Shown in pieces: positions 1,912 to 64,000 of a stretch of DNA of 64,000 bases. The notes below the pieces were generated by a model. The model was given only the letters and a program-made list of their open reading frames with translations. It made no database searches and was not told the origin of the DNA. Numbering within the stretch: position 1 is the stretch's first letter; the number at the start of each line of letters is the position of its first letter. Origin of the DNA: a virus (lineage: Duplodnaviria; Caudoviricetes); the IMG/VR virus record IMGVR_UViG_3300031555_001562. One strand, 5' to 3'. The translations under genes and the position numbers were made by a program.

Positions 1912-1962
1912 GATTTTTACCTCCGTTGTCAATCACTTTGTTGCGTCCTATCTGATGACTTG

Positions 1963-1991: not shown

Positions 1992-2065
1992 GTACTTTTT
2001 TCGAATTTCTTAGATTTTATTTTGTGCTTGATTTTATTTCGTGCCGTGTCTCATCTGATGTACAT

Positions 2066-2094
2066 ACTATACCTCCGAAATATTTATTTGTCAA
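2066..2094 (-). promoter_or_regulatory. sigmaA promoter, leftward P2
   Basis: TTGACA-17 bp-TATAGT with UP-like A-tracts; CATCAGA follows the -10 box in both P1 and P2. Confidence 0.8.
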
Positions 2095-4581: not shown

Positions 4582-4754
4582 TTTATCTTATATTGTTTTA
4601 GTAGACGCAACAAAGCTTACAAAGCGATGCAAGGGCTTTAGACGGGCGTTTATTTCAGTGAACACCTTTCTCACGAATCGAACAAAAGTCCGAATAAAAG
4701 CCACCAGACGGCTCCCAGAGCCATTCAAAGACATTTGAACAGGACGGTAAATGA

Positions 4755-7538
4755 ATGGAGCAGAAGAGCTGCTTAAAAATGATTTACAAAGTTCACAGCA
4801 GACAAATACTCAAAGCCAAACTCAATTTGGTGATGCCGCTTGAAACTGCTATGAGCGATTACCCTGAGATGATCGTCTCACTGAATGATAGTCAGCTGCT
4901 ACGGTTCATAGATGAACTGAACGGTGTGACGGAAGTCGATGAGAAGATCAGAGAGATTAAGAAGAAAATCAAGTTCGAGAAGAAACGACCACGGAGCAGA
5001 GAAACCAAAGTCAATATCAAGAACTTATATCGAAACCTGTATGAGCTGCAATTTAAGAAAGATTATGTCTGTGTAATCATGGACAGCAATGCAGACTATG
5101 ATCGCATCAACCAGGGATTCACGATCAACGGAATTCAGTTCCGGAGATTCCTCGGAACCAATGGTGGAATCAAGAATTCTACCATCGTGTATGTAAATGC
5201 AGAACTATATCCTGAATTGAAACGCAGATTGGACAACGGAAGAGACATGACTAAGGCACTGGTTCCTGCAAAGCTGGAGGCTTACCAGGCGCTCGTGTGT
5301 TCAGGTTCTACTCCGCTGCCGCCACCAAAAGGATTCATCGTTGTCAACGATTGCATTACCAAATTTACAGATGATGTGATCCTAATCAATGATGAAACAG
5401 ATGGTGAACCCGACTTGACGTATGTCAAAGACTATGAGATTGAACACAACGATTCTGACGGCTATGGCCTGATGCTACCCTCCTATTCTCGCAAGGTCAA
5501 CGAGTATTTGACTGGTGATGGAGAAAATACCATCTCCGGAATGAACACCCGGTATGCGTGGACTAAGGGCATGGTTTACACATTCGATTTCATTGAGTTT
5601 GCAGAGAAAATAGCTGGGACTTATGAGATCATCGACGCATGGGGCGACAAGAGGGATATCCGGGATGCAGAAGTCATTTTGACTGTATCTATGCTGAAGC
5701 TGTGGGACAGCTATTCGAGTTGGGAAGACTACTACGAGAATTGTGAGAAAAACCATTACCAGTTCTCTACACCAAAGATTACTCCTGCAAATCTGGAACA
5801 CGTTCGCAATACGAACTATCAGTTCCTCCAGAGTTACAATTTCACAGATGAAGAGCTGCAAGCACTGTGCCAGCCAACAATAGATGAAATCAAGGACGTT
5901 CTTGGCATGGACTACCGTAAGAGCCTCGTATTCCTTGCTGGCTATGGTCTGAATGATGACAATGCCTATACCGACAATTTCGATTACTGCATTCGTGCGC
6001 TTATGATCGATGAGCGGATGATTAATGATCCTTTCATTCGCCGCAAGATCTGGAACATGATTACACGCAGAATTGAAATGGCAAAGCGTGGCGCAATCAA
6101 AGTCAATGCAAACTTCGCTATGATTTCTGGTGATCCATATGCTCTGGCGCAAAGCATGTTCGGACTGGAAGTGACCGGACTGCTGAAGGCAGGAGAAGTA
6201 TATCACAAATATTGGATTGACAAGGGATCTACGGAGCTTGCTTGTTTCAGAGCGCCCATGACATGCCACAACAATATCCGCAGGATGAAACTCTGTCTGA
6301 CAGAAGAGGCTGCACACTGGTATCAATATATTACCACCGCCTCAATTCTGAACGCATGGGATACTGCGTGCGATGCAATGAACGGTGCAGATAAAGACGG
6401 CGATACCAATATGGACACCGATAATCCCGTGATCGTTCGCAACACACTCAACTCTCCAACAATCGTCTGCATGCAGCGCAAGGCAGAGAAAAAGGTTGCT
6501 ACGGAAGAGGATATCATTCAGGCGAACAAACTTGCGTTCAATGACGATATCGGAACGGTGACAAACCACGTTACGAGTATGATCGAGGTTCAGGCTGGTT
6601 TTGAACCTGGTAGTGACGAGTATGAGACTCTGGCCTATCGCATCATGTGTGGTCAGCTGTACCAGCAGAACACGATTGATCGTGCAAAGGGCATTATTGC
6701 AAAACCAATGCCTGAGTATTGGTATAACATCCGGGATAACATTGTCAGAGATGATGATACTCCGGAAGAGGCAGAGACTAAGCGGTATAACAGAAGAATC
6801 ACTGCGGCGAACAAACCATACTTCATGACATACGTGTATCCCAATCTTCGGACGAAGAACAATACATATATCAAGAACAGCGATTACGGCGCAATCATGC
6901 GGTTCGGCGGATACGGAATCCGTAGTATCAAGGATTTGGAAAAATATGAACCAAAGACTCAAGAGATGCTGGACTACCTTGATTACTACTATCGATACAT
7001 ACCAGTTGGCAACAATGCCTGTGTCGTAAATAGAATCTGCTGGATTTTTGAGAATGCATTCAACGGTTATCTATCAAAAAAATATGAGCAACCAAAATTC
7101 GATTACAACATTCTAAAGAGTAATGTTGAGTACAGTCGTAAGAACTATCTTGACATTCTTGCAGTATATGAGGACTATCAGCGCCGCATTGAAGCATTCC
7201 AGAAGAGATCAAAGGCAGAAAAACTTGATCTGTTCGATGCGTGGCAGGAGCGTAGCCGCCTTACTACCTGGTTCCGGAAGTCTTGCGAAGAAATTTGCTC
7301 AAACGAAAAAGAACTATGTGATATCGTGATCGATATCTGCTATAAGGCCGAGAAGACAAAACAGTTTGCATGGGATATTTGTGGATCAACTATGCTTGAC
7401 AATTTGCTTGCAAATAATGGCGGTGTGATTCATTATCCAAAGTTGACGGATTCTGATGGCGATTTCGTTTACTGCGGTGAACAGTTTGTTATGTGCGAAA
7501 AAGAGATTGGTGGTGATAGTGATGATTGTTTTGAATGA
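4755..7538 (+). CDS. yonO: YonO-like single-subunit DNA-dependent RNA polymerase (double-psi beta-barrel, eukaryotic RdRP-related)
   Basis: 927 aa with catalytic NGADKDGD (DxDGD), SDGYG, KGMV and FRAP motifs; lies upstream of late genes as in SPbeta. Confidence 0.88.
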   Translation: MEQKSCLKMIYKVHSRQILKAKLNLVMPLETAMSDYPEMIVSLNDSQLLRFIDELNGVTEVDEKIREIKKKIKFEKKRPRSRETKVNIKNLYRNLYELQFKKDYVCVIMDSNADYDRINQGFTINGIQFRRFLGTNGGIKNSTIVYVNAELYPELKRRLDNGRDMTKALVPAKLEAYQALVCSGSTPLPPPKGFIVVNDCITKFTDDVILINDETDGEPDLTYVKDYEIEHNDSDGYGLMLPSYSRKVNEYLTGDGENTISGMNTRYAWTKGMVYTFDFIEFAEKIAGTYEIIDAWGDKRDIRDAEVILTVSMLKLWDSYSSWEDYYENCEKNHYQFSTPKITPANLEHVRNTNYQFLQSYNFTDEELQALCQPTIDEIKDVLGMDYRKSLVFLAGYGLNDDNAYTDNFDYCIRALMIDERMINDPFIRRKIWNMITRRIEMAKRGAIKVNANFAMISGDPYALAQSMFGLEVTGLLKAGEVYHKYWIDKGSTELACFRAPMTCHNNIRRMKLCLTEEAAHWYQYITTASILNAWDTACDAMNGADKDGDTNMDTDNPVIVRNTLNSPTIVCMQRKAEKKVATEEDIIQANKLAFNDDIGTVTNHVTSMIEVQAGFEPGSDEYETLAYRIMCGQLYQQNTIDRAKGIIAKPMPEYWYNIRDNIVRDDDTPEEAETKRYNRRITAANKPYFMTYVYPNLRTKNNTYIKNSDYGAIMRFGGYGIRSIKDLEKYEPKTQEMLDYLDYYYRYIPVGNNACVVNRICWIFENAFNGYLSKKYEQPKFDYNILKSNVEYSRKNYLDILAVYEDYQRRIEAFQKRSKAEKLDLFDAWQERSRLTTWFRKSCEEICSNEKELCDIVIDICYKAEKTKQFAWDICGSTMLDNLLANNGGVIHYPKLTDSDGDFVYCGEQFVMCEKEIGGDSDDCFE

Positions 7539-9834: not shown

Positions 9835-9921
9835 GGGCGAGTAGAGTGTAATTGGTATCACCCCGGACTGTAAATCCGGTGCTTTTAGCCACTGTAGGTT
9901 CAAGTCCTACCTCGCTCACCA
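9835..9921 (+). tRNA. tRNA-Tyr(GTA)
   Basis: GGGCGAG/CTCGCTC acceptor, CCGGA-CTGTAAA-TCCGG, long variable arm, CCA. Confidence 0.92.
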
Positions 9922-9925
9922 ATAT

Positions 9926-10001
9926 GGGTGGGTGGCGTACATGGTTGGCGCACCGGACTGAAAATCCGAGGACGTTGGTTCGATTCCAACCCCTCCCACC
10001 A
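9926..10001 (+). tRNA. tRNA-Phe(GAA)
   Basis: Cloverleaf, CTGAAAA loop, GTTCGATT T-arm, CCA. Confidence 0.9.
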
Positions 10002-10005
10002 ATAC

Positions 10006-10080
10006 GGCTCGTTGGTATAACGGTTATTATACCGGACTGTCTCTCCGGTGACATGGGTTCGACTCCCATACGGGTCGCCA
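10006..10080 (+). tRNA. tRNA-Asp(GTC)
   Basis: CCGGA-CTGTCTC-TCCGG, G73, CCA. Confidence 0.9.
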
Positions 10081-10083
10081 CAT

Positions 10084-10158
10084 GCAAGTGTACCCAAGTG
10101 GTTAGGGGCAGCACTGATAATGCTGTAGACGTGAGTTCAAATCTCTCCGCTTGCACCA
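10084..10158 (+). tRNA. tRNA-Ile(GAT)
   Basis: CAGCA-CTGATAA-TGCTG, CCA. Confidence 0.9.
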
Positions 10159-10257
10159 TACAGAGTTGCATAACTCTTACTTTTTTGGTTCTTCGGTAAA
10201 CCTGAAACCGATCTTGGAGACAAGGAGGAGTCTGCATAGATTCCTCATATCTGATAT

Positions 10258-10333
10258 GGCTCCTTAGCTCAGTCGGTAGAGCAACGGCCTGTTAAGCCGT
10301 GGGGCGAAGGTTCGAGTCCTTCAGGAGCCGCCA
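10258..10333 (+). tRNA. tRNA-Asn(GTT)
   Basis: ACGGC-CTGTTAA-GCCGT, GGCTCCT/AGGAGCC, CCA. Confidence 0.95.
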
Positions 10334-10346
10334 AATAATTCTCTAT

Positions 10347-10424
10347 GGGGCAGTAGACGAATTGGATAGAGTCACCAGCCTTTCACGCTGGAATTTGTGG
10401 GTTCGATCCCCATCTGCCTCACCA
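10347..10424 (+). tRNA. tRNA-Glu(TTC)
   Basis: CCAGC-CTTTCAC-GCTGG, CCA. Confidence 0.92.
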
Positions 10425-10431
10425 AATATAT

Positions 10432-10507
10432 GCCGATATAGCTCAATTGGCAGAGCAACTGATTTGTAATCAGTAGGTTGGGGGTTCAAGTCCGTCTATC
10501 GGCTCCA
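10432..10507 (+). tRNA. tRNA-Thr(TGT)
   Basis: ACTGA-TTTGTAA-TCAGT, GCCGATA/TATCGGC, CCA. Confidence 0.95.
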
Positions 10508-10513
10508 ACTGAT

Positions 10514-10589
10514 GCGGACATAGCTCAATTGGTAGAGCATCTGATTGCCATTCAGAAGGTTGCGAGTTCAAGCCTCGTTGTTCGCTCCA
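10514..10589 (+). tRNA. tRNA-Gly(GCC)
   Basis: TCTGA-TTGCCAT-TCAGA, U73, CCA. Confidence 0.93.
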
Positions 10590-14990: not shown

Positions 14991-15065
14991 TGCGGAGTGG
15001 AGCAGCGGTAGCTCACCGGCCCCATAAGCCGTTGGTCGCCAGTTCGAATCTGGCCTCCGCAACCA
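14991..15065 (+). tRNA. tRNA-Met(CAT), initiator-like and atypical
   Basis: TGCGGAG/CTCCGCA, GAGC/GCTC D-stem, loop CCCATAA, TTCGAAT, CCA. Confidence 0.88.
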
Positions 15066-30366: not shown

Positions 30367-31413
30367 ATGGGGAAAGAAGGCAGATCAACTGTTTACAACA
30401 ACATTACAAGTCCTGAAAAGTTGCGCCAAGTGAATGCGGACAACATTCAGCTGGAGGAAGACTTCTTGGAGTATTTGGCTTCAGTTGATAGATCAAAGGG
30501 TACGATTGCACAGTACAAGGCAAATCTGCATGTATTCTGGTGCTGGAACCTTGAATACAACAAGAACAAATTCTTTGTTGATTTGACGAAACGTGAGATC
30601 TCTAAATTCCAGAGCCACGCAATTAATGTTTGGAAATGGTCTCCAAAGAGAATCCGTACCGTCAAGGCGACAATTAGCAGCCTGTCAAACTTCATTGAGA
30701 ACATCTTGGATGATGAATATGAAGATTACAGACCGATTGTTCGGAAGATTGAGTCTCCTGCGGATGAAGCGGTCAGAACAAAGACCGTGTTCCAGATGGA
30801 AGATCTACAACCTCTTCTGGATCAGTTGGTTGAGAAGAAGGAGTATATGAAAGCATGTGTCCTGGCACTAGGTATGTATAGTGGCAAGCGTAAAGCAGAG
30901 TTGACTAGATTCAAAGTGTCATATTTTGATGATGAGAATCTGATCTGTGGAGGTGCGCTGTACAAGACTCCTGAGAAGATGGTCACTAAGGGCAGAGGCC
31001 AGAGAGGTAAGTTGCTCGATGTGTATACTCTGGCAAAACCGTTCAAGCCATATCTGGACATGTGGCTGGAGGAAAGAGATCGGCTTGGAATTAAGACCGA
31101 TTGGCTTTTCCCTAAATATAAAGATGGAGAATGGCTGGACGAGCATATTGATACTTCTCTTCTAGATTCTTTTGCAAGAACATTCTCAAACATGTTGAAT
31201 AGACCAATGTACTTCCACTCATTGAGACATGCGTTCACTACATATCTGCTTGAGCAGAATCTACCTGAGAATGTTGTTCAGATGATTCAGGGTTGGAGTT
31301 CAAGTGATATGGTTCGTGTCTATGATGACCGGAGCGGAGATTCACAGCTCGAAAAGTACTTTGGTGCAGATGGAATTAAGCAAATTGAGCAGAAGTCTCT
31401 TGACGATCTGTAA
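30367..31413 (+). CDS. Tyrosine recombinase inside the tail module (SPbeta YomM-like position)
   Basis: G.R..EL, TKGRG, HSLRH, QGW and RVY catalytic set; SAM-like N-terminus. Confidence 0.88.
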   Translation: MGKEGRSTVYNNITSPEKLRQVNADNIQLEEDFLEYLASVDRSKGTIAQYKANLHVFWCWNLEYNKNKFFVDLTKREISKFQSHAINVWKWSPKRIRTVKATISSLSNFIENILDDEYEDYRPIVRKIESPADEAVRTKTVFQMEDLQPLLDQLVEKKEYMKACVLALGMYSGKRKAELTRFKVSYFDDENLICGGALYKTPEKMVTKGRGQRGKLLDVYTLAKPFKPYLDMWLEERDRLGIKTDWLFPKYKDGEWLDEHIDTSLLDSFARTFSNMLNRPMYFHSLRHAFTTYLLEQNLPENVVQMIQGWSSSDMVRVYDDRSGDSQLEKYFGADGIKQIEQKSLDDL

Positions 31414-31522: not shown

Positions 31523-34057
31523 ATGGCGAATAATTATGAGGCCATAGTGCGTGCTGTATTAGATCAAAGACGATTTAATTCAGAGATGGACGCATTGGAG
31601 AATGCTAGATATGAGCTTCAGAATGTTCATATTGATACGAGCAATTTTGTGCGAGAAATTCAAAATGCAATCAATTCTGCATCTTTCACGCTAAATATTA
31701 ATCCCACATTCAATGCAAATCAGGCACAGAATATGGGACGTACATATGGACAGAATCTGAGTCGTGGTATTAATACAGCTATCAATTCCGGTATTCGTGG
31801 CGGCGGAGTCAATCTGCTAGAGAACATTTTAGGTAATACACACAATGTAAATCAAAATGCTGTATCACGTATTATTTCAGGAATTACAAGAGATGTCGGA
31901 ACTGCCAATATTCAGATTCAGAATATGCGCACACAGTTCCAGAATGCTTCCGATGCCGCAAATGGTCTGCGTAATTTCAGAATTACTGGCGTTGATGAAC
32001 TTGGCAACGTCATTACGAATCTGACACAGATTGACGAAGCTACTGGCGGAGTTGTGTCAAGCTTGACTACTGTCACGCAGAACTTTGATAGAAGTGCTGA
32101 GGCGGCAAGACAAGCTCAACAGCAGTACAGTCAGTTGCTTACCCTTGCTCAACGTATTGGTCAGCACGAAATCAAGCTTGCTGGTCTGGATAGCGCAACT
32201 GATTCACATCAGATTGAAACTCTTCGTGTTCAGATTGTAAATCTAAGACAGGCATATAATCAGCTGTATGCAACTGCAAACCAGAATTTGTCCGCTACAC
32301 AGCTGGCACATCTTGGCGACATTACAAGTGAAACAGCTGCAAGAGTTGATCTGCTACGGGCGAAACTTCAAGATGCTTCAGCCGCAGAAGCTCTCAATAC
32401 AAGCTTTAAGAATCTTTACGATACTGCAAAAAAGATTAGCCAGCTTGAAATCAAAATTGCTGGTCTGGATCCAACAAAGAATTCTAGTCAGATTAGTGTT
32501 TTAACAACACAGCTGAATGGTTTGAAAACTGCTTATGCTACAATGAAGCAGTCCGTTCAGGGTGGATTATCGGCAGAGCAGGTCAAAAAGCTTGGTGATG
32601 TAAGCAAAGAAACGGCTGATAAGGTTGCGCTAATCAAGGCAAAGCTAGAGGATGCGAAGAAATACGCAAGCAGCTTGCAAGTCATTACATTTGATAATGA
32701 AATGACAAGTTGGCTTGAGAAGAATTCAAGGGCTTCAAAAGATTTTGGCGCATCAATTGATGCGTTAAGAAATAAGCTGAGAACACTGAATTCAACTGGC
32801 GATCTAACGGAAGCACAGCTGAAAGATCTAAGGAACGAATTTAAGAATATTCAGCAACAAGCAATTGCAACTGGTCAAGTCGGGCAGTCTTTTGGTTCTA
32901 CTTTCTCCAAGGCTTTTAAGAGCATTGCAAACTATGTGTCTGTAGCAAGTATTATTAGCACTGTCGCTAGAACATTCAGAGAAATGTACACTGCGGTTCT
33001 AGATGTTGATTCTGCAATGGTAAACTTGATGAAAGTTACTGATGAGACAAGTTCTAGATACCAGAAATTCTTAGATGATGCTTCTGAATCCGCAAAAGAG
33101 CTTGGTAGAAGTGTGTCCAGTTTGGTTGAGCAGTCTGCTAACTGGGCTAAGTTAGGTTATACACTTGATGAATCCGAAGAGTTAGCTAAATTGTCATCTA
33201 TTTATGCAAACGTTGCTGAAGTTGATGACAGTACGGCTGTTTCTGATATGGTTACAGCAATGAAGGCATTCAATATTGAGGCCGCAAATGCTATAAACAT
33301 TATTGACCCCTTGAACAAACTTGGAAACGAGTTTGCAACTTCTGCCGCCGATCTTGGTGAGGGTTTGGCAAAGTCTGCTTCAGCAATGAGTTCTGCTGGA
33401 ACGGATATGTACAAGACTCTTGCTATGTTGACTGGTGGCGCAGAAATCACCCAGAACGCAGGAGAATTTGGTAGCTTCCTGAAAGTTGCCAGCATGCGTA
33501 TACGTGGTATGAAGGGTGAATTGGAAGAGCTTGGAGAAGAAGTTGATGAATCAGTTGATTCTATCAGCAAAGTCCAAACTCAGATCCTAAACCTGACTCA
33601 CGGTAAAGTTAATATTTTTGATGATTATGGTGAGTTTAGAGATTACTATGACATCATGAAAGATATTTCTGAAGTTGTCGATGATCTGACTTCAACCGAA
33701 CGGTCTTCATTATATGAAATTCTGTTTGGTAAGATGAGAGGCAACCAGGGTGCAGCTTTGATTCAGGCATTCCAATCTGGACAGATTGAAAAAGCATACA
33801 ACGCAGCAACTAACGCTGCCGGATCAGCCGCAGCAGAGCAAGAAAAGTGGATGGAAGGTCTTGAGGCAAAAATCAAGCAATTCCAGGCAGCATGGCAGAA
33901 TCTTTCTATTACTTTCCTTGATTCAGGCTTCATAAAAGGTCTAGTTGATTTCGGTACTTTCGCAGTCACAATTTTGACCAAAATCATTGATGCTGTAGGA
34001 TCACTAAGCGTTGTACTCGCCGGTGTTGGCATATATGCATTCATTAAGAACTTCGAT
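31523..34057 (+). CDS. Tape measure protein, exon 1
   Basis: TP901-type tape measure core (VDSAM..L.KV, WAKLGY, GNEFA, LFGK..GN); ends at the predicted 5' splice site. Confidence 0.85.
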
Positions 34058-34486
34058 TGACTCGTTTAGAGTTATAACATTACCCAGAATATGTTTGGTC
34101 TACTATGGGGGAAGACTCATCATATTGGCGATGACGATAATTCCATAGGATGAAAGTTCTAAAATAACAAAAGGAAAAATTGCTTGAAACCATAATACTT
34201 GCTACTCCATAAATATAGTGGAAACCGATCTAAAGGTAAATAAGTCAAACCGCTGGTACACGGGAGCAAGTTTTCTACGGCTAACAAATAACGCCGGACA
34301 GATTTACAATTGGTAACGAGCAGCGCACCCATTAGCCGAAAGGACTAATCGTATAATCCGATAGGTAGCAATCGTGAAAGCGATGTCGGGATAAGGATTT
34401 TTGTAATGGGAACGTTCAGAGGACACCATTCCTTACAGTAAATGAAAGCCATATTTCATTTGCTGTTAATGCATGTTCCAAAGTAC

Positions 34487-34529
34487 CACAACAAATAAAC
34501 GCACTGCCATAGAAATAGCAATGCGTTTA
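34487..34529 (-). terminator. Terminator of the intron-internal antisense gene
   Basis: TAAACGCA/TGCGTTTA hairpin followed by TTTGTTGT on the minus strand, just past the stop codon. Confidence 0.65.
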
Positions 34530-34536
34530 ATATAGT

Positions 34537-34833
34537 TTAGAAATCACTTTTACAATTATTACAATGCCACTGTTTTGCAATTTTGCCAACAGAGAAAATA
34601 CCAAAAATGGCTACACTTCCAACCTTTGATATACTAGATATTTTCTTTGTATCTTTTGAATGACAATAAGGGCATTCTATTAGTGGCGGCGGTACATATC
34701 CATTTATAAATTCAAAAAAGGTTAGTTCACCGCACTGTAAACATTCCCCTGATGTGAATGTTGCAGTGGTATCCTTATATGATTTATCATGACCGCATTT
34801 TGAGCAAATATAATCAATTATTTCTCTAGACAT
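34537..34833 (-). CDS. Intron-encoded antisense 98-aa protein: four CxxC motifs and a hydrophobic segment
   Basis: CSKC, CLQC, CPYC, CNNC; VGSVAIFGIFSVG; RBS AGGGGGTGGT. Confidence 0.8.
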   Translation of the reverse strand: MSREIIDYICSKCGHDKSYKDTTATFTSGECLQCGELTFFEFINGYVPPPLIECPYCHSKDTKKISSISKVGSVAIFGIFSVGKIAKQWHCNNCKSDF

Positions 34834-34852
34834 TTTACCACCCCCTATTGTT

Positions 34853-34881
34853 ATTATAAATTGTAATTATTCATTTGCCAA
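34853..34881 (-). promoter_or_regulatory. sigmaA promoter for the intron-internal gene
   Basis: TTGGCA-17 bp-TATAAT on the minus strand, 19 bp upstream of the ATG. Confidence 0.75.
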
Positions 34882-34921
34882 GTGGTTTTTAAGATTATTT
34901 TGTACTTTGTAATATTTATAG

Positions 34922-37900
34922 CAATTTAAGGTTCTGGGGTTACAAGGTGCAACAAGCATCGATCTAGTTACAGCAGCAACCGCAAGAATGACTGTTGCCG
35001 ACACAGCCGCTGCCCTGGCTAAAACTGGATTATCAGAGGCACAGAAGATCGCAATTCTTATGAGCAAAGGCTTATCTGCCGAAGAAGCAAAAGCTTCCTT
35101 GGCAACAGCATCTCATACGGCTGCAACTGTCGGAGCAACCGGTGCCACAGTAGGATTAACCGGTGCAACCCTTTCTCTAAAAACTGCGTTAAATGGTCTT
35201 AAAGTCGCATTCATGACGAACCCATTGACTGCAATAATTACTATTGCTTTGACTTTAATACCAATCATTATCAGTATTGCAAACGCAGTAAAAGATGCGC
35301 ATAAATCTGTGTCTGAAAAGTTAGAAGATTTGAATTCACAATTCACAGAATTGTCGAATAAAATCAAACAGGTTTCTTCTGATTTTCAAAGTTTGAAGTC
35401 AAACGCAGATAGCGTTATTCCAAGGTTTACTGAACTTGCACAGGGAGTAAATCAATTTGGAGAAAATGTCTCTTTAACCGACGAAGAATATGAAGAATTT
35501 CTAAGATTAAACAATCAAATCGCAGAAATGTTCCCAGAGTTGAACTTGGGAATGGATAGCAATGGAAATGCTATGTTGGCATTGTCCTATTCTGCCGATA
35601 CATTAACAACCTCTTTGTATAATTTAGTAGAAGCAGAACGGCAAGCTGCCCATGCTGAAATTGCGGGTACAATGCCAGATGTTATCGAAAATATCAAAGA
35701 TACAGTTGAAGTTTACAAAGATGAAATTGATGATCTTAAAGATTCGAAAGAAGATTGGGAAGATGTATATAATGACATCTTAAATCAGTCTTTGCCCACA
35801 AATGTCGGTAGATACTCAACACAAGAAGCTGGTTATCAAGCAGCATTAGACTTTATTGAAAAAGCACAATATCTTGGAATGCACGGAAATGTGCTTATGG
35901 ATAATCAGCAAAACACAAATAACGGCTATGTGTTTAGTGTCCAGTGGGATTATGAAAATGTAAACTTGGACTATGTGGATAAATTATATGCCGCAAAGCA
36001 GGAAGAATTTGATAAACAAATCCACGATTATGAGCGCAGAATTCAAGCAAAGTGGCAAACCATAAATCCCGTCGTAGGCAGTTGGTTGCAAACTGACTTC
36101 TTGTTTAATGATTTAGATAAGAATATGCAACTTGTTGCCGAAACTATGGTTTCTGGTCTTGATTTTAGCTCTCTTGGGCTGACAACACAAGAAGAAGTTC
36201 AAGATTATATAACGAATAATATTCTTAATCCTTTGTTCCTTGCAGCACCAGAAGTACGAAATGCTTTTGCAAGTATTACTGATTGGAGAGAACAGTTACA
36301 AAAAGGAGAAATCACTTCTGAGCAATTCTCTAAAAATGTTAAAGATACATTTAACAATTTAGTCAATGGCATGGATGCTTCACGAATCGATACATTTAAG
36401 TCTGCGTTTGTATCTGGATTTAATGCGATAGGAATTGAGGGAGATAATTTTGATGCCGTAGTCGATAACATTATAGCAAGTTGGGGCAGCACGAACTCTG
36501 TATTCAACAAAACTGATGGTATCGACGATGCAATATCAAAAGTACAGGCTCTTACAAGCAGCATTTCTACCGTGCAAGAAGTGTTATCAGGACAAGGCAC
36601 TGGTGTTTCTTTATCAATCGAGGATTTTAATTCCGCAGAATTAAAAGATTATACATCGGCTCTTGAGTACAATAATGGTGCTTTGCAGCTAAATGCAGAT
36701 AAGGTAAATGAGCTGATTAAGGCAAAGACCGAAGAACAAATTGCCATTAATGATACCAATAAAGCCGTTGCTCAGTCTAAATATCTTGAGAACGCTGCCG
36801 AGATTGAACGTCTACGCAGAGAACTTGGTGAACTTGATGAGAGCGAAACAAGTGCAAGAGACGCAATTCAAGGAAATATTAATACTCTCCTAGAAGAAAA
36901 CAGTGTCCTAAAGAATACTTGTACTCAGTATGATTTGATGACTTCTTCCTTACGAGAAGCCACAAGTGCATATCAGCATTGGCTCAATGCACAAAGCGCT
37001 GCTCAGAGCGGAGATATGTTTGATGACACTGTTGATGCATTTAATCATATCAATGATACTCTGAATAACAAGGATTCCGATCTATATGGAAGAGTTGGAC
37101 GTACTGACTATGAAGCAGCAGTAAATCTGGTCATTCCTGATTCCATTGATCCTAAAGACACAGAGGCCGTTAATGCATATATGAAAGAGATTTACAGTCT
37201 CTTTACGTATAACGATGACGGTAATTATGCTGGTCTGAATATCAAGAACTTCTGCGAACGTGCAATCGACGAAGGATTAATGGTGCTTGATGAAGCAACC
37301 AATTCTTATCAGATTGTTGGTCAGCAGACAATGGAAGACTTTGCTGAAGGCATGGATCTTTCACTTCCTCTTGTCCAGGCTATGTTTGGCGAGATGGAAG
37401 AGTTTGGCGCTGAATTCTCATGGGCAGACGAGGCACACCAATCATTTGGTGATCTTGCTGTTTCTGCTAATGAAGCTGCCGAAGCTCTACGTGGCTTTGA
37501 AGGAAACGAAGATTTGGAGATTCGTCTGGATGTTTCTGATATTGAAAGTGGTCAGGAAAAGCTAGACACATTGGATCTGACTATTGCCGAGATGAATTCG
37601 ATCAAGGCAAAACCAAATGTTGATCCTTCAGAAGTTGAGTATGCGAACGAGGTCATTAAGTACTGCGTAGCCCAGAAGCAACTACTATCTCAACCTGATG
37701 TCATGATGGTTGATACTTCTGTTGTCGAGGGTGATCTTGGCAATGCTATTGCACTGCTACAGGAGTTCCAGACTGCTAAAAACAATCTGGAAGTCGCTCA
37801 AGCACTAGGTATTGACACTACTCAGGCACAGGCTGATCTGGATGCTGCCGCACAAAAGATTCAGAACCTTGATGCAAATATCACGAGCGAAAAGGCGCTA

Positions 37901-40900
37901 AACATTGACACCACTTCAATTGACACAATTACAACATCGATTTCAAATCTGTCTGCTGAATTGATTGTCAAGGCCGGTGTTGATGAAACCGCAGTCATTG
38001 GATATCAGGCCTCAGAACACGATGCGCAAGGTACGGTCATTTGGGACAATGATACCAAACTCGTCGATGTATATGCGGAAGCAGCGCACTACGCAGAAGG
38101 TACGGTCACATGGTATAACAACACAAATCTTGTAAAGACAAGGTTCTATGCCAATGGATATGTTAACTGGAATCAGGTTAACGGAACCGCACATGCATCT
38201 GGTACTGCTCGTGCTGGCGGTGATTGGGGTACTGCACCTGGCGGCAAGACTCTCGTCGGAGAACTTGGTCAGGAAATTGTTGTAGATCCTCATACCGGAC
38301 GCTGGTACACAGTTGGTGATACCGGAGCTGAATTCCGTGATATTCCTCGTGGTGCAATCGTCTTTAATCACAAACAGTCAGAGTCACTGCTGAAAAACGG
38401 TTACGTCGCCGGAAGAGCATCCGCCCTAGTTGGTGGTACAGCTATGGTTACTGGCGGCATTCCTGTCAGCGGAGCAGATGCAAGCACTGAATCTGGCGGC
38501 AACAAGACCAGTAATCACACTAAAGGTACTTCTAACAACAGTCATGATACCGAAGATGAACTCGAAGTATTCGACTGGATTGAGGTTGCTATTGACCGCA
38601 TTGAGCGTGCTGTTGATCGACTGAAGACAACGGCTACCAGTGCATACAAAGCACTGAAGACTAAGCTTGGTGCGACATACGATGAAATCAGCAAGGTCAA
38701 TGAAGAGATTGCTGTTCAGGGACTTGCTTATGAAAGATATATGGAAGAAGCCAATTCTGTTGGTCTGTCTTCTGATCTTGCAAGCAAAGTTCAGGATGGT
38801 ACAATCGATCTGACTGAGTACGATTCTGAGACCCAAGAGCTAATCAAGGATTATCAGGAATGGTACGAGAAAGCATTGGATTGTTCCGATGCTATTCAGC
38901 AGCTTCATGAAGATCTTGCTTCTCTATATGAAGATAACTTCAACAACATAAAAGATGACTTTGATAGCCAGCTAGAGCTGCTAGAGCATATGACCACAAC
39001 ATATGAGACTGGTATCGATAAGCTGGAAGCACAAGGTTATCTGCAAAGCACTGAATACTATGCCGCCTTGAAAGATGTTGAGCAGCAAAATATTGATGTT
39101 CTGAATCAAGAACTTGCTTCTCTTATTCATTCTTTCTCCGAAGCTATGGCCTCCGGTGAGATTGAAGAAGGTAGCGAGGCATGGTATAACATGCAAATTG
39201 CCATAAATGATGTTAAAGAGCAGATCGATGAAGCGGAACTGTCTTTGGCTGAGTATGCGCAGACTATGCGTGAAATCGAGTGGGAACACTTCGACTACAC
39301 CCGTGAGCGTATTGCGCAACTAACACAAGAGTCTGACTTCATGATCGAACTCATGAGTAATTCTGATATGCATACAGACAATGGACAGCTGACCGATGAG
39401 GGTATGGCTACTATGGGTCTGCATGGTCTGAATTACAACACATATATGGCTGAAGCCGATGCTTATGCTCAGGAGATTTTGGAGATTGATAAGCAACTAG
39501 CAGAAGATCCCTATAACACTGAGTTGATCGAGCGCAGAGAAGAGCTGCTTGGCCTACAGCAAGATTCTATTCTTGCCGCAGAAGCAGAAAAACAGGCAAT
39601 TATCGACCTGGTTCGTGAAGGCATTGAGATTGAACTGGCTTCTTTGAAAGAACTGATTGACGGATATACCGATGCACTTGATAGTGCAAAGGATTTGTAC
39701 GAATATCAGAAGAAGATCAAAGAACATACTCAGGAAATCGCTTCTATTCAGAAGCAGTTGTCAGCATACGAAAATGATTATTCTGAGGAAACTCAGGCAA
39801 AGGTTCAGCAGCTGAGAGTCCAGCTGGAGGAGGCAGAAAGCAATTTGGAAGAGACTGAATATACTCAGTATATTGCAGATCAGAAGAAATTGCTTGATGA
39901 ACTGTATCTGGAATACGAAACAGTTCTGAATGAACGCCTAGATAACACAGAAGCACTTCTGGAGGAAATGATTGGCGCTGTCAATGAAAATTCTGGTTCT
40001 ATTAATACAACCTTGACAGAGGTTGCAGATAGTGTTGGATATACAATGACAGAGAGCATGCAGTCTATCTGGAATGGCTCTACTGAAGCACTTGATGGCA
40101 TCATTTCTACATACGGAGATGACTTCGGTGAAAAGATGACCGCCGCAAACAATGTGCTAAGTCAGATCGAGGCGAACACTGCCGCAATGATTGCAAACAG
40201 TGACGAACAGGCGGAAGAGACCGTTGAGGATACAACGCCGACAACAGATCCTGATCCTGATGTTACTGCTCCAACAACTCCCACCGAACCAGAACCTAGC
40301 ACTCCTTCGGAACCGGCTCCCCAGGAAAAGACTATCACCGTTGGTGGTAAGATCAATGCCAAGGGTGCTAAGATCTATGATTATGCTGGTGATAAGTCTG
40401 GTGAAAATCAGTACTTCTCAAAGGATCCTATCTATACTGTCCTTGACGAAAAGAGCGGATACCTGAAGGTTCGTCATCACAAGCTATCCAGCGGTGTTAC
40501 TGGTTGGTTCAAGAAATCTGATGTTAAGGCATATAAGACTGGTGGCCTGGTTGATTATACTGGCCTGGCACAGCTGGACGGTACTCCTGGTAAGCCAGAG
40601 CTTGTTTTGAATGCACAGGACACAGCCAATTTCATTGCTCTGAAGGAAACCCTACAGAGAATGAGCGAACAGGGATTGTCTTTTGGCACATCCTATGGCA
40701 GTGCTTATGTGCAGAGCCTTAGCGGTATCACTGATATTTCCAAGAAGATTGCAAGTATCCGTGATACGTCCGGCATTAACACCGGAGTCAACATTGGTGA
40801 TACTCAGATCACCATTGAGATTGACCACGTTGAAGACTACAACGATTTCGTTGCACAGCTTCAAAAGGATAAGCAGTTCGAACGTTTTGTTCAGTCTATG

Positions 40901-40963
40901 ACCGTTGACCGTCTAGTTGGCGGAACATCTCTGAAGAAGAACAAATATTTCGGCAATAGATAA
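34922..40963 (+). CDS. Tape measure protein, exon 2 (spliced product about 2858 aa)
   Basis: Frame open from CAA 34922; long coiled coils, LVGELGQE and GTPGKPE motifs, Pro/Thr linker and SH3-like domain near the C-terminus. Confidence 0.85.
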   Translation, partial: QFKVLGLQGATSIDLVTAATARMTVADTAAALAKTGLSEAQKIAILMSKGLSAEEAKASLATASHTAATVGATGATVGLTGATLSLKTALNGLKVAFMTNPLTAIITIALTLIPIIISIANAVKDAHKSVSEKLEDLNSQFTELSNKIKQVSSDFQSLKSNADSVIPRFTELAQGVNQFGENVSLTDEEYEEFLRLNNQIAEMFPELNLGMDSNGNAMLALSYSADTLTTSLYNLVEAERQAAHAEIAGTMPDVIENIKDTVEVYKDEIDDLKDSKEDWEDVYNDILNQSLPTNVGRYSTQEAGYQAALDFIEKAQYLGMHGNVLMDNQQNTNNGYVFSVQWDYENVNLDYVDKLYAAKQEEFDKQIHDYERRIQAKWQTINPVVGSWLQTDFLFNDLDKNMQLVAETMVSGLDFSSLGLTTQEEVQDYITNNILNPLFLAAPEVRNAFASITDWREQLQKGEITSEQFSKNVKDTFNNLVNGMDASRIDTFKSAFVSGFNAIGIEGDNFDAVVDNIIASWGSTNSVFNKTDGIDDAISKVQALTSSISTVQEVLSGQGTGVSLSIEDFNSAELKDYTSALEYNNGALQLNADKVNELIKAKTEEQIAINDTNKAVAQSKYLENAAEIERLRRELGELDESETSARDAIQGNINTLLEENSVLKNTCTQYDLMTSSLREATSAYQHWLNAQSAAQSGDMFDDTVDAFNHINDTLNNKDSDLYGRVGRTDYEAAVNLVIPDSIDPKDTEAVNAYMKEIYSLFTYNDDGNYAGLNIKNFCERAIDEGLMVLDEATNSYQIVGQQTMEDFAEGMDLSLPLVQAMFGEMEEFGAEFSWADEAHQSFGDLAVSANEAAEALRGFEGNEDLEIRLDVSDIESGQEKLDTLDLTIAEMNSIKAKPNVDPSEVEYANEVIKYCVAQKQLLSQPDVMMVDTSVVEGDLGNAIALLQEFQTAKNNLEVAQALGIDTTQAQADLDAAAQKIQNLDANITSEKALNIDTTSIDTITTSISNLSAELIVKAGVDETAVIGYQASEHDAQGTVIWDNDTKLVDVYAEAAHYAEGTVTWYNNTNLVKTRFYANGYVNWNQVNGTAHASGTARAGGDWGTAPGGKTLVGELGQEIVVDPHTGRWYTVGDTGAEFRDIPRGAIVFNHKQSESLLKNGYVAGRASALVGGTAMVTGGIPVSGADASTESGGNKTSNHTKGTSNNSHDTEDELEVFDWIEVAIDRIERAVDRLKTTATSAYKALKTKLGATYDEISKVNEEIAVQGLAYERYMEEANSVGLSSDLASKVQDGTIDLTEYDSETQELIKDYQEWYEKALDCSDAIQQLHEDLASLYEDNFNNIKDDFDSQLELLEHMTTTYETGIDKLEAQGYLQSTEYYAALKDVEQQNIDVLNQELASLIHSFSEAMASGEIEEGSEAWYNMQIAINDVKEQIDEAELSLAEYAQTMREIEWEHFDYTRERIAQLTQESDFMIELMSNSDMHTDNGQLTDEGMATMGLHGLNYNTYMAEADAYAQEILEIDKQLAEDPYNTELIERREELLGLQQDSILAAEAEKQAIIDLVREGIEIELASLKELIDGYTDALDSAKDLYEYQKKIKEHTQEIASIQKQLSAYENDYSEETQAKVQQLRVQLEEAESNLEETEYTQYIADQKKLLDELYLEYETVLNERLDNTEALLEEMIGAVNENSGSINTTLTEVADSVGYTMTESMQSIWNGSTEALDGIISTYGDDFGEKMTAANNVLSQIEANTAAMIANSDEQAEETVEDTTPTTDPDPDVTAPTTPTEPEPSTPSEPAPQEKTITVGGKINAKGAKIYDYAGDKSGENQYFSKDPIYTVLDEKSGYLKVRHHKLSSGVTGWFKKSDVKAYKTGGLVDYTGLAQLDGTPGKPELVLNAQDTANFIALKETLQRMSEQGLSFGTSYGSAYVQSLSGITDISKKIASIRDTSGINTGVNIGDTQITIEIDHVEDYNDFVAQLQKDKQFERFVQSMTVDRLVGGTSLKKNKYFGNR

Positions 40964-41014: not shown

Positions 41015-41335
41015 ATGAAAAACGAAAAGAAAGTTGCTTTCCAAAGCCAACGTATTGCTGAATTAGAGAAGCAAATCAAATGTTTGGAAGCAGAGAACAA
41101 ATCAATGGAGAAAGACATTGATCGCTATAAAAAGATTATTTCATCAAAGGATGAGACAATCGCCGCTTTGCAGTCTGAGACAGCAGAGTATAAGAAGCGT
41201 CATGATGCGGAAATGCATGATGTTATGGAACTGAAAGCAAGTCTGAGAACCGCAATCAGTGATGCAAAGGCTTCTCGTGCCAAATACGAGAAAGAAATGA
41301 AATCCCTTATTGATCGAATCAGAAAGGGAAAATAA
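41015..41335 (+). CDS. Coiled-coil hypothetical protein
   Basis: GGAGG before ATG 41015. Confidence 0.65.
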   Translation: MKNEKKVAFQSQRIAELEKQIKCLEAENKSMEKDIDRYKKIISSKDETIAALQSETAEYKKRHDAEMHDVMELKASLRTAISDAKASRAKYEKEMKSLIDRIRKGK

Positions 41336-41353
41336 CGGTAAGGCGGTGAAACT

Positions 41354-42172
41354 ATGTATGCTATTGACTTTGAATATGATGGTCAGTATTTGAGTGACTA
41401 TGGATTCATTATCTGCAACTTTGATAGTGCATCCGGAGCGGACGTAGTTGATGCTGGCTCAAAGATTACTTTCAATAAGGTATCTCGAAACAGAGGTAGG
41501 CAGTATAGTTTAGCCAGTACACAATATGACGCATGCATCCAGGCAACATTTGATATCTGCAAAAATCCAGACGAGTATGACTATGAAGATATGGTCATTT
41601 CAAATGATGAATATAGAGATCTTATGCGCTGGCTGAATCGTCGTGAATTTCTGAAATTCCAGGTATTTGACCAGGATGATAAAGAAAGAGACACATGTTA
41701 TTACGATGTGAGCTTCAATATTGACAAGATCAAGATTGGCGAAATTCTGTATGGTCTGCGCCTCACTATGGAGTCGAATAAACCATTTGGCTATGGTCAG
41801 GAACAGTATGCTTCATATACATTCTCTGACGTTACAAAGTCTTATTTGCTTAGTGATATATCTGATGAAATCGGATCTACATATCCATATGTGACTATCA
41901 CTTGTAATGTTGATGGAGATTTGCAGATTTACAATGAGCTTGAAGATTGCACGACTCTAATTAAGAATTGCAAAGTTGGTGAGGTAATTACGATGGACGG
42001 AGATGCACAGATCATTTCCACCACATATGCCAGCCACGATATTTGTAATGACTTCAATTATGAATTCTTCAGAATTGGTAACACGATAAGCACGAGAAAC
42101 AATCGAATCACTGTATCAAAGCCATGCAAACTCGAAATCAGGTATGCGCCAATTATTAAGGATACACCATAA
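41354..42172 (+). CDS. Distal tail protein (Dit)
   Basis: Position after tape measure; DFEYDG..LSDYG start, PFGY, N.I.V end. Confidence 0.7.
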   Translation: MYAIDFEYDGQYLSDYGFIICNFDSASGADVVDAGSKITFNKVSRNRGRQYSLASTQYDACIQATFDICKNPDEYDYEDMVISNDEYRDLMRWLNRREFLKFQVFDQDDKERDTCYYDVSFNIDKIKIGEILYGLRLTMESNKPFGYGQEQYASYTFSDVTKSYLLSDISDEIGSTYPYVTITCNVDGDLQIYNELEDCTTLIKNCKVGEVITMDGDAQIISTTYASHDICNDFNYEFFRIGNTISTRNNRITVSKPCKLEIRYAPIIKDTP

Positions 42173-59927: not shown

Positions 59928-60060
59928 TTCCGCTAACAACTGGTGGTTGCGCTCACCTAATGTTGGCAACACCACTAACTTCTGGAATGTCAACAACAAT
60001 GGCAACTTGAACAACAACAACAACGCCAGCAACTCTAATGGCGTGTGTCCCTGATTCTCA
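59928..60060 (+). repeat. DGR template repeat (TR)
   Basis: AAC-rich copy of the VR between avd and the RT gene. Confidence 0.95.
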
Positions 60061-60340
60061 TACATGAAGTAACCTAAAATAAGGGTGAAGTCTATTATTT
60101 GAGATATGAATGAGAAGGAGAATATAACCGTCCATATTTCAATATGGTAAATAATACGCACTTTTGCATTAAAGAGTGCATGCTATGACAGCATTCCGGT
60201 GCGGACGGGTGGACGCTTCTTGCATGGATCGGAAATGATTGCAATTCCGGTTTTCATACCCATATGCCTAGTAGCCATAACCGCAATCAAACAATAAGGC
60301 TATACGGAGGAATATCAAACAAACAGAAAGAAGTTAAACG

Positions 60341-62864: not shown

Positions 62865-64000
62865 TTACTGACTATTCAGTTTTTTGACAGCATTTTTCTT
62901 CTGCTGATTAATCAGATGGATATACGTGTTATATGTGATCGTGATATCAGAATGACCGAGAAGTTCACTAACAGTCTTCACATCTTCACCATTCGCAAAA
63001 AGTCTACTTGCAAAAGTATGACGAAGAGAATGAAGCCCGTAGATCTTATCTTCTTCAAATCCTGCTGCAACAGCAATCTTTCTAAACATTCTATCAAGAT
63101 ATCTTGGAGCAACCGGCTTACCAGCTTTTGTGGCGAGAACGTAATCAAATGTGCCAGTAATCTCTTTCAGCCGAAGAAGAGCATCATAAGCATCATCATT
63201 GAGATGCACGTCTCTTGTACTGGTTTGAGACTTAGTTGAATCCTGTTCAATGACAACGTACTTTTTGGCAGCATCTACGCTTCTATCTTTGACAACGACT
63301 CTTGTTGCGTTGATATGGATGATTCTGTTGACAAGATCAACGTCAGTCCACTTCAGAGCTAAAAGTTCAGCAAGTCGCAGCCCGGTATTGACATCAAGTA
63401 CAATTGCATCTCCAAGGCGATATACTCTTTTACCATTCGAGTAAATGCCAACAGCAGCCTCACAGAGCTTCTTGGTCTCGTTTTCATCGTAGCAGCGGAT
63501 TTCTTTCTTACCAAACGAACTCTTGGCAGGAATCGTCACTCCGAGCGCAGGATTGAACAAAACTGTCTTCTGGATGATTCCAGTTCTAAAACACTCATTT
63601 ACTGCGTCATATGCCTTTTTGATCGTAGAATAAGACATTCCAGCTTCAGCCAGATTGTTAATCATATTCTGAACATCATTGGCCTGGATTGCCGCAAGCT
63701 GAATGTGACCGATCTGCGGAATCACCTGATAGGTTATAGTCTGCTCAAGGCGATCATAGCTCTTAGGTTTCAGCGTGTTCTTCTTATTGGTGTGCAACCA
63801 GTTCAGCATGTAGCTTTCAACTGTGTTTTTCTGCACGACTGTCTGATCGTTCTTGTAGAACTCTTTCTGGAATTCCTTCAGCTTCTTTTTGACTTCTCTT
63901 TCTGTTTTGCCATACAAGGCTTTGATGCGTGGTTTTCCTTTTTCATTGACACCGATGACCATTCTTGCAGTCCATGTTCCGTCCTTTCTCTGAGATATTG
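62865..64000 (-). CDS. Tyrosine integrase, 5' end outside the window
   Basis: TGLR..EL, TKS, HSLRHTFAS, LGH, TYNTY; frame continues upstream as ISQRKDGTWTAR (arm-binding domain). Confidence 0.9.
   Translation of the reverse strand, partial: ISQRKDGTWTARMVIGVNEKGKPRIKALYGKTEREVKKKLKEFQKEFYKNDQTVVQKNTVESYMLNWLHTNKKNTLKPKSYDRLEQTITYQVIPQIGHIQLAAIQANDVQNMINNLAEAGMSYSTIKKAYDAVNECFRTGIIQKTVLFNPALGVTIPAKSSFGKKEIRCYDENETKKLCEAAVGIYSNGKRVYRLGDAIVLDVNTGLRLAELLALKWTDVDLVNRIIHINATRVVVKDRSVDAAKKYVVIEQDSTKSQTSTRDVHLNDDAYDALLRLKEITGTFDYVLATKAGKPVAPRYLDRMFRKIAVAAGFEEDKIYGLHSLRHTFASRLFANGEDVKTVSELLGHSDITITYNTYIHLINQQKKNAVKKLNSQ

Follow-up and report, generated by a model that had tools for sequence, protein, structure and literature searches.

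A putative group I intron with an antisense zinc-ribbon gene in the tape measure gene of an SPbeta-like phage

The interrupted tape measure gene

We analyzed a stretch of 64,000 nucleotides (nt), referred to as the window, which is the first 64 kb, in minus-strand reading, of the IMG/VR virus record IMGVR_UViG_3300031555_001562. This record has a length of 163,674 bp, is rated 100% complete, and represents an SPbeta-like phage of 164 kb of gut or rumen Clostridia. The present study concerns an insert of 864 nt in its tape measure gene, which, judging from sequence comparison, is very probably a group I intron, and a gene for a small zinc-ribbon protein that is encoded on the opposite strand of this insert. 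A previous reading of the window, made from the letters alone (the sequence-only reading), had proposed splice sites, a guide sequence, a closing stem, and a minus-strand transcription unit at this place; all of these features, with their coordinates, are present in the sequence. The gene is organized as follows.

31523 to 34057, plus strand: tape measure exon 1, 845 codons, ending in ...AFIKNFD with U as last base; the open reading frame (ORF) extends to 34060
34058 to 34921, plus strand: putative group I intron of 864 nt, ending in G34921, as judged from covariation (alignments A3 and A5, see below), the z-score of the minimum free energy (MFE) fold, and homologous inserts at the same site
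34922 to 40963, plus strand: tape measure exon 2, 2013 codons plus stop, beginning with QFKVLGLQGATS...; the frame opens directly after a stop

The two ORFs of 845 and 2013 amino acids (aa) are two parts of one tape measure protein of 2858 aa. Exon 1 contains a PhageMin_Tail domain at residues 522-736 (Pfam, 8.7e-23), and its residues 456-837 align at 33% identity with residues 699-1083 of the corresponding protein of the SPbeta-like Brevibacillus phage Sundance, whose tape measure gene is a single uninterrupted ORF of 2528 aa. The insert site, ...KNFD/QFKVLG..., is conserved and lies in the hydrophobic middle of the gene. Exon 1 ends with AAC UUC GAU at 34057 and exon 2 starts with CAA UUU AAG, and removal of the 864 nt joins ...FIKNFD to QFKVLG... 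in frame (845 + 2013 = 2858 aa), as the sequence-only reading had stated. A blastn search of 33000-36000 against 50,697 phage records gave no match.

Fold, covariation, and proposed splice sites of the insert

To compile homologous inserts, we used pattern and protein searches, which retrieved other viral contigs and three bacterial assemblies; distant homologues (L007-L011, and L014 over the 3' core only) were added by nhmmer. In total, 13 homologous inserts at the same site were used for comparison. The first ~430 nt of the insert are common to nine viral and three bacterial-genome loci, in which they are found at the same codon. A secondary structure was derived by hand and evaluated on two alignments, namely, A3, comprising 8 close copies, and A5, comprising 9 sequences including distant copies. 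The elements of this structure, all on the plus strand, are listed below with the evidence for each.

34055 to 34100: P1, 34055-34059 with the guide 34096-34100, having U34057-G34098 at the 5' splice site (covariation)
34060-63/34069-72 and 34076-80/34091-95: two small hairpins inside P1 (hand-derived structure)
34095-97: P10, guide UUG with exon 2 CAA (double change in L028)
34103 to 34148: P2, 34103-08/34143-48, with the inner hairpin P2a, 34117-21/34130-34 (4 pairs per helix changed on both sides)
34171 to 34175: P3 5' strand AAGGA, with its partner at 34430-34434 (UUCCU), followed by J3/4 AAA (A-U to G-C in L007-L010)
34180 to 34323: P4, 34180-86/34317-23 (UUGCUUG/CGAGCAG), around P5, 34190-92/34311-13 (covariation; same helices in the single-sequence MFE fold)
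34197-34296: large P5 extension with five hairpins (covariation; MFE fold)
34328 to 34410: P6, 34328-34/34404-10, with two inner hairpins (3 P6 pairs changed on both sides)
34338-41 (GAAA loop), and 34357-61/34386-91 containing 34371-74/34381-84: hairpins within P6 (covariation)
34411 to 34434: J6/7, P7 5' strand (G34419, bulged A34420, GGAC 34421-24), and P3 3' strand, with the R element GUUCAGAGGAC (P7 changes)
34435 to 34466: P8, a 13-bp hairpin (6 pairs changed on both sides)
34467 to 34479: J8/7 (34467-74) and P7 3' strand GUUCC (34475-79) (covariation)
34480 to 34908: P9 region, with the stem AAAGUAC 34480-86/GUACUUU 34902-08 around the antisense cassette (read from the sequence)

The guide UUGGUC at 34095-34100 pairs with GAU/UG(A) and, once the exons are ligated, with CAA. 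In P7, GUUCAG[A]GGAC pairs with GUUCC; the bulge is retained among the copies (A; C in L009/L010), and this strand presumably fits the R-type consensus of group I introns. When the window copy was folded on its own, the MFE structure recovered most of the hand-derived helices, with z = -3.5. The P9 stem of the sequence-only reading is present in the window and near-identical in the nearest relative, L054, but it was not found by eye in five other relatives (L028, L029, L051, L053, and L055).

Because the Rfam group I model RF00028 gave no match, the fold was tested directly by covariation, with the following results. (i) Standard pairs occupy 94.8% of the cells on A3 and 94.4% on A5, and when partners were slid by 1-3 columns, 34-45% and 35-45% of the cells paired, respectively. 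(ii) Changes on both sides were observed for 23 of 97 pairs on A3 (2-6 in the slid controls) and for 34 of 75 pairs on A5 (0-8 in the slid controls); the observed values were not reached by any of 500 shuffles of either alignment. (iii) On A5, each of the helices P3, P4, P6, P7, and P8 has changes on both sides. Some helices are invariant among the close copies, and their both-side changes appear in the distant ones: in P3, A-U is replaced by G-C (L007-L010); in P4, U-A is replaced by C-G and G-C by A-U; and in P7, L009/L010 have A-U in place of G-C as the closing pair, and G-U and A-U are exchanged in two inner pairs. (iv) The pairings with the exon ends covary as well. Exon position -2 of P1 changes from A-U to G-C in L007/L008, next to a U-G pair that is invariant in 9/9 sequences, and P10 is altered on both sides in L028, where the guide reads UCG for UUG and exon 2 reads CGA for CAA. 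The group I core (P3, P4, P6, P7 with bulged A, and P8) and the guide pairing with both junctions, which the sequence-only reading had described, are thus supported.

The coding sequence provides additional signs of splicing. The base preceding the 5' splice site is U in all members, and the base preceding the 3' splice site is G in the 7 members (7/7) of which the 3' end is covered. Among the relatives, the introns are 826-1015 nt long, mostly not multiples of three, and the exon 2 frame differs from the exon 1 frame in L028-L030. Protein-level conservation already covers the first 14-36 codons of exon 2, Q(L/F/I)(K/R)(V/L/I)LG..GA(T/S)..., all of which come before the earliest in-frame start, and the candidate exon 2 starts of the relatives lack a Shine-Dalgarno sequence, save one GAGG before a codon-28 ATG in L028. 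Together, the splice-site bases, lengths, frames, and conserved codons leave little room for two independent genes. A group II intron was dropped as an explanation, as the insert starts with UGACU and not GUGYG. An intein and a programmed frameshift were dropped as well: the insert lengths do not divide by three, the junction has an in-frame stop, and the relatives have exon 2 in another frame.

Several observations weigh against a spliced intron. (i) Searches with RF00028 were negative at the gathering score, on 1.4 kb with E<=10, and genome-wide, so that the covariance-model support envisaged by the sequence-only reading did not materialize at any threshold tried; this result describes the coverage of one model and is not a defining property of the group I class. 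(ii) No intron-less allele with the ligated-junction pattern was found in the viral contigs. (iii) When the beginning of exon 2 was compared with the Sundance protein by BLASTP, no alignment across the junction was obtained, and the colinearity with Sundance hence rests on exon 1. In separate searches, a weak genome-wide RF00028 match at ~41299-41619 (10 bits, E 0.5) was dismissed, being within a coding region, and the one match to the ligated-junction pattern was a chance match in an unrelated gene. When 34 related loci and two other insert types were compared with Rfam, the only RF00028 match was a different insert in L027. The ribozyme lineage is outside the reach of the Rfam group I model RF00028.

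The alternative to splicing is that two separate tape-measure-like proteins are made and that 34058-34921 is an intergenic region with a moron and a conserved noncoding element. The missing Rfam match is consistent with this, as are the gene callers, which split the tape measure gene in the close relatives examined, an in-frame ATG at 34988, and L007, which has only the 5' part of the gene, followed by ribozyme-like sequence and an unrelated gene. However, the covariation is specific to the group I fold and extends to the pairings of the exon ends in P1 and P10. In addition, protein-level conservation in the relatives includes the 22 codons upstream of the ATG at 34988, the candidate starts have no Shine-Dalgarno sequence other than the L028 GAGG, and Sundance encodes the homologous protein in one ORF of 2528 aa. 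We therefore consider two separate proteins highly improbable.

With respect to the spread of the presumed intron, the ribozyme is 77-94% identical between copies, the 30 nt flanking the insert on either side are 67-83% identical, and the distal exons are 47-58% identical, which is near the level of unrelated AT-rich DNA. The window and L054 have ribozymes that are 94% identical and exons that are as diverged as those of any other pair. The intron thus looks either mobile or under very strong constraint.

The antisense gene and its protein family

The region enclosed by the P9 stem contains a complete transcription unit on the minus strand, as the sequence-only reading had noted.

34853 to 34881, minus strand: sigma-70-type promoter TTGGCA-17-TATAAT, 11/12 (scan; best promoter-like site in the region)
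34838 to 34845, minus strand: ribosome-binding site GGGGGUGG, a few bases before the AUG (read from the sequence)
34537 to 34833, minus strand: antisense ORF P0003, 98 aa, two zinc ribbons (sequence, profile, model, and a ratio of nonsynonymous to synonymous differences [pN/pS] of 0.1-0.5)
34496 to 34529, minus strand: intrinsic terminator, a 15-pair stem followed by UUUGUUGU (scan; only terminator-like site in the region)

The 98-aa ORF, preceded on the minus strand by the ribosome-binding site GGGGGTGG, contains four CxxC motifs and a hydrophobic stretch and is the only ORF of >=60 aa inside the insert. A homologous ORF occurs at the same place and in the same orientation in all close intron relatives with the 3' region covered (7/7), and L039 and L040, whose contigs are truncated, contain part of it. 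In each of the close relatives, the stop is followed on its 3' side by a hairpin and then a T run, with hairpin sequences that differ. Inspection by eye identified a promoter-like site near the 3' splice site in most of them, including TTGACA-17-TATAAT in L028 and, at the same place, TTTACA in L029. Over the fixed C-terminal part of the protein, pN/pS is 0.1-0.5 and pS is 0.5-0.9, that is, synonymous sites are near saturation. These values argue for a real protein-coding gene, an assignment that we make with considerable confidence. The gene is far more diverged than the adjoining ribozyme. Its ORF, placed between its own promoter and terminator inside a late operon, has the sequence organization that defines a moron.

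One might suppose that the antisense unit acts mainly as an RNA or regulator, in that convergent transcription or pairing with the intron loop damps tape measure expression or splicing in the lysogen, or that the protein binds the intron RNA. The conserved positions of promoter and terminator, the sequences of which drift, would fit such a role, and so would the frequent binding of nucleic acids by zinc ribbons, the nearest (weak) fold matches being ribbons of RNA polymerase and TFIIS. However, the protein is under clear purifying selection, it belongs to a large family with free-standing members that do not adjoin introns, and the terminator stops the antisense RNA before it reaches the ribozyme core. 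This possibility is thus very unlikely.

The protein consists of an N-terminal zinc ribbon and a C-terminal zinc ribbon with an inserted hydrophobic helix. Among close copies, the C-terminal 45 residues are nearly fixed (CPYCHS.DTKKIS..SK.GSVALFGIFA.GK..KQWHCNNCKSDF), and the N-terminal part ranges from nothing to three extra ribbons. An AlphaFold model (pLDDT 76) shows two ribbons and places the hydrophobic stretch in a helix at residues 68-81. A profile search retrieved 2787 cluster representatives at E<=0.001. All family members carry the module at the C terminus, where it is preceded by zinc ribbons, coiled stretches, or transmembrane segments; the shortest has 56 aa. Three members that were looked up are free-standing genes, two of which are beside helix-turn-helix (HTH) regulators in prophage-like DNA; the genome of the window contains a single copy. 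The family is large, uncharacterized, and mostly phage borne.

Database comparisons of the protein returned little beyond this family. Pfam, PHROGs, NCBIfam, and PADLOC gave only generic zinc-ribbon matches, below or near threshold; Foldseek against the Protein Data Bank (PDB) gave only ribbons of the RNA-polymerase and TFIIS types, with E>0.2; a profile search of PDB sequences gave no relative; and the ESM Atlas gave only the protein's own uncharacterized, mostly viral family. The intron ORF has no family match to, or catalytic motif of, the LAGLIDADG, GIY-YIG, HNH, His-Cys box, or PD-(D/E)xK nucleases, in agreement with the sequence-only reading, which had seen no homing-endonuclease motif. 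An "HNH endonuclease" PHROG match (E 0.0013) and a Cas12f1-like_TNB match (E 0.046) were rejected, as each covers only a ribbon, and transposase and defense assignments of the ORF were also set aside, given that the libraries and structure searches gave only generic zinc-ribbon similarity. LITAF/SIMPLE-like domains are zinc ribbons of the type CPxC ... HxCxxC in which a hydrophobic stretch between the knuckles anchors the protein to the membrane. The hydrophobic, glycine-rich insert between the ribbon knuckles of the intron protein is reminiscent of these domains, a parallel that we draw as an analogy only, since the LITAF stretch has about 22 residues compared with about 13 here and there is no sequence match; LITAF (PF10601) was not among the Pfam matches up to E 0.1.

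Recurrence of the gene, known systems, and interpretation

To assess how often the gene accompanies tape measure genes, we surveyed the 80 viral loci nearest to the protein family for a tape measure 5' part. It was found on the opposite strand within 3.5 kb in 38 of these loci, and in 35 of the 38 it is past the stop of the zinc-ribbon gene. The ribozyme of the window is present in nine of the 80 loci, and 17 of these loci (16 with a tape measure match) gave no RF00028 match. tblastn located family members opposite to the tape measure strand in L009-L012, L015, L016, L018-L024, L031, L033, and L038. In the four loci that were mapped (L012, L015, L018, and L020), the gene is directly before the point at which the tape measure frame resumes. 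The intervening sequences of these loci, at the same or a nearby site, each have the antisense family gene at the 3' end and have neither similarity to the ribozyme of the window (nhmmer) nor an Rfam match.

L012, 4870-5807: intervening sequence with the family gene, antisense, at its 3' end
L015, 4963-5774: intervening sequence with the family gene, antisense, at its 3' end
L018, 4876-6747: intervening sequence with the family gene, antisense, at its 3' end
L020, 4876-6740: intervening sequence with the family gene, antisense, at its 3' end

The L018 type contains, by eye, textbook Q, R, and S elements (AAUCAGCAGCC, GGUUCAUCGACUGUA, and AAGACAGUCAG) and on this reading is probably another group I lineage. 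Behind the homologous ribozyme of L009 (4782-8792 and beyond) lie genes for an HTH_26 protein, a membrane protein, and a KwaB-like protein (PF16162; 33.4 bits, which exceeds the cut-off), as well as a lipoprotein-like ORF, zinc-ribbon fragments, and others; as estimated from the match position, it takes roughly 5 kb before the tape measure gene continues with its 3' part.

Further interruptions and family genes were seen in the relatives. L027 contains a different insert of about 345 nt, about 100 codons upstream, in which 4436-4729 is an RF00028-positive group I intron (62.6 bits), and L026 has an insert of about 1.67 kb (about 4561-6236) at about the same place. In the close relatives L077 and L078 (3275-5243), the 5' part of the tape measure gene has a second interruption with a sense-strand ORF of 315 aa, which gave weak or faint DUF723 and DUF4379 matches and may be a classical intron-encoded endonuclease. 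L010 has, besides the intron gene, a further zinc-ribbon gene of the family upstream of the tape measure gene (1887-2297, minus strand) and another partial family match, also upstream and on the opposite strand (2455-2589). In L007 (4845-8838), an unrelated ORF of 797 aa, and not exon 2, comes after the ribozyme core that adjoins the 5' part of the tape measure gene; a transposase-like ORF is nearby, and the locus looks rearranged or decayed.

Other features of the window bear on the phage itself. A Phage_integrase match (93.6 bits) in an ORF of 377 aa at about 62913-63482, minus strand, is at the extreme end of the record, as expected for a prophage end. This position makes a temperate lifestyle probable, and a homologous intron of 909 nt (L056) on a 207-kb contig of the Ruminococcus sp. 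YE282 isolate genome gives further support. A second Phage_integrase match (51.7 bits) is in a 348-aa ORF of the tail-gene region (30367-31413, plus strand), which ends about 110 nt 5' of the tape measure gene; in Sundance, a gene annotated "integrase" is two genes 5' of the tape measure gene. A tyrosine-recombinase-like gene within a tail module is odd. On the plus strand at 60055-60329 is an RT-2 RNA (RF03077; 80 bits compared with a gathering score of 40), a motif that accompanies reverse transcriptases, and the sequence-only reading had put a diversity-generating retroelement at this place. There are also nine tRNA genes on the plus strand (9837-10586 and 14991-15062), eight clustered and one apart, all above the Rfam gathering score.

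The element can be compared with several known systems. (i) The phage group I introns of T4 td (I-TevI), SPO1 (I-HmuI), Twort, and the Moonbeam terminase carry homing endonuclease genes on the sense strand. The insert of the window shares with such introns a ribozyme in an essential gene and a protein gene in a peripheral loop (PMC4299906), as well as a target site that is better conserved than the remaining host gene. In contrast, its passenger runs on the opposite strand between a promoter and a terminator of its own and lacks a nuclease motif. (ii) IStrons (CdISt1 of Clostridioides difficile and BcISt1 of Bacillus cereus) combine a group I ribozyme with tnpA/tnpB of IS200/IS605 and move by transposition. 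They likewise have genes other than homing endonucleases at the 3' part of the ribozyme, so that insertion in a gene is harmless, but there is no tnpA/tnpB ORF in the insert of the window. (iii) Some nuclear rDNA group I introns carry antisense His-Cys box homing endonuclease genes. As in the present case, their ORF is opposite to the ribozyme strand and needs its own promoter; unlike it, they are eukaryotic, are located in rRNA genes, and have a recognizable nuclease ORF. (iv) The gp15 gene of HK97 is a moron in the tail-gene region, and its membrane-protein product prevents the entry of DNA, in which the tape measure protein takes part. Morons resemble the antisense unit in being promoter-ORF-terminator cassettes within a late operon that are expressible from the prophage; they differ in lying between genes and not inside one, and in having no tie to a ribozyme. 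(v) In prophages of the Bacillus cereus group, tape measure genes have group I introns at three sites, TMP-IVS1, IVS2, and IVS3 (Tourasse and Kolstø 2008, PMC2504315). These introns belong to classes IA1/IA2, have no complete homing endonuclease gene, occupy the best-conserved stretches of a gene that has otherwise diverged, and occur in similar form in different phages, with more than one site used in a single gene (PMC2504315). They also interrupt the tape measure gene of temperate Firmicutes phages (PMC2504315). For them, no antisense gene has been reported, in contrast to the conserved antisense gene of the RF00028-negative introns studied here, and the intron of the window differs further in its large P5 extension and in a single base between P3 and P8. 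Since tape measure introns were described in 2008 (PMC2504315), the location is not new, and the view of the sequence-only reading that phage introns usually sit in DNA-metabolism or terminase genes is outdated. A literature search, which had incomplete coverage, gave no description of a non-nuclease gene that is antisense, has its own promoter, and forms a conserved part of a phage group I intron. Its closest parallels are IStrons, the antisense His-Cys box genes of nuclear rDNA introns, and morons.

Taken together, a self-splicing group I intron with a moron-like antisense gene that is a stable companion of tape measure introns is likely the best explanation overall. According to this model, the ribozyme would remove itself during late transcription. 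The guide 34096-34100 would hold the 5' exon via the U-G pair and then align exon 2 via P10, with G34921 occupying the G site in P7, and the ligated RNA would be translated into one protein of 2858 aa with the junction-spanning peptide ...FIKNFDQFKVLG.... The region after P7, which is the usual place of a sense-strand homing endonuclease gene, holds the transcription unit of the opposite strand. As this unit is complete, host RNA polymerase could express the antisense gene independently of the late operon, and the gene would most likely be expressed from the prophage as well. Its product may be membrane associated and may act in exclusion or defense. Such a prophage-expressed accessory gene, with a possible membrane-associated role in exclusion or defense, is our best guess, at about even odds.

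Two findings are difficult to accommodate in this explanation. The hydrophobic helix has a pLDDT of only 52-68 and is too short for a normal membrane span, and the association with tape measure genes in 38 of 80 loci exceeds what is expected for a casual moron and agrees with a function connected with either the intron or the tape measure protein. Given this association, the gene is no random passenger but a characteristic feature of the tape measure inserts of these phages, and it may have a role in mobility or one linked to the tape measure. The independent cargo of the sequence-only reading is not upheld either, given the homologues in 7/7 close relatives and in other inserts at the same site. 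Its idea of the ribozyme as a landing pad fits, indirectly, the multigene cargo of L009 with its KwaB-like gene.

A role in mobility would mean that the zinc-ribbon protein is a new homing endonuclease or targeting subunit that cuts or marks intron-less alleles and is encoded backwards, in the manner of some His-Cys box genes of nuclear rDNA introns. Its gene occupies the usual place of homing endonuclease genes and is present in every full-length close copy, and the same family is found at the 3' end of other inserts at the site and in 38 of the 80 nearest loci. Moreover, the 94% identity of the window and L054 ribozymes despite diverged exons points to horizontal spread, which needs some mechanism, and variable N-terminal ribbons joined to a fixed C-terminal module are what a DNA-binding part joined to a constant part would look like. 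However, the protein matches no homing-endonuclease family, Foldseek finds only generic ribbons (E>0.2), and no solved relative exists; the conserved module has 45 residues and the smallest member 56 aa; other members are fused to transmembrane segments or are alone beside regulators, outside introns; and the cargo has diverged far more than the ribozyme, which indicates that the two do not simply travel together. A mobility factor is therefore improbable. The broader proposal, in which the gene is neither passenger nor classical nuclease but a functional partner of the tape measure introns, either as a new homing or targeting factor or as a prophage-expressed factor, physically linked to its own tape measure allele, with incoming tape measure proteins at the membrane as its target, has a somewhat better standing but remains doubtful. 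Under that proposal, several group I lineages of gut and rumen Clostridia phages would have given up the homing nuclease in favor of a gene that runs backwards and is transcribed separately, and the introns of some relatives would have grown into multigene accessory or defense bays inside an essential virion gene.

If the favored reading of a self-splicing intron with a stable, moron-like companion is true, a number of consequences follow. (i) As gene callers split the gene, the length of the tape measure protein and hence the predicted tail length would be misjudged. (ii) There would be a phage group I lineage with a constant non-nuclease companion that is transcribed against the host gene, which raises the questions of how such introns spread and why they are kept. 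(iii) A gene driven by host RNA polymerase would sit in an essential late gene at no cost, making the intron a new address for accessory genes, and the same place in relatives holds defense-type genes. For the zinc-ribbon family, which comprises thousands of proteins of Bacillota phages, the link to the tape measure gene offers a concrete start for tests of function.

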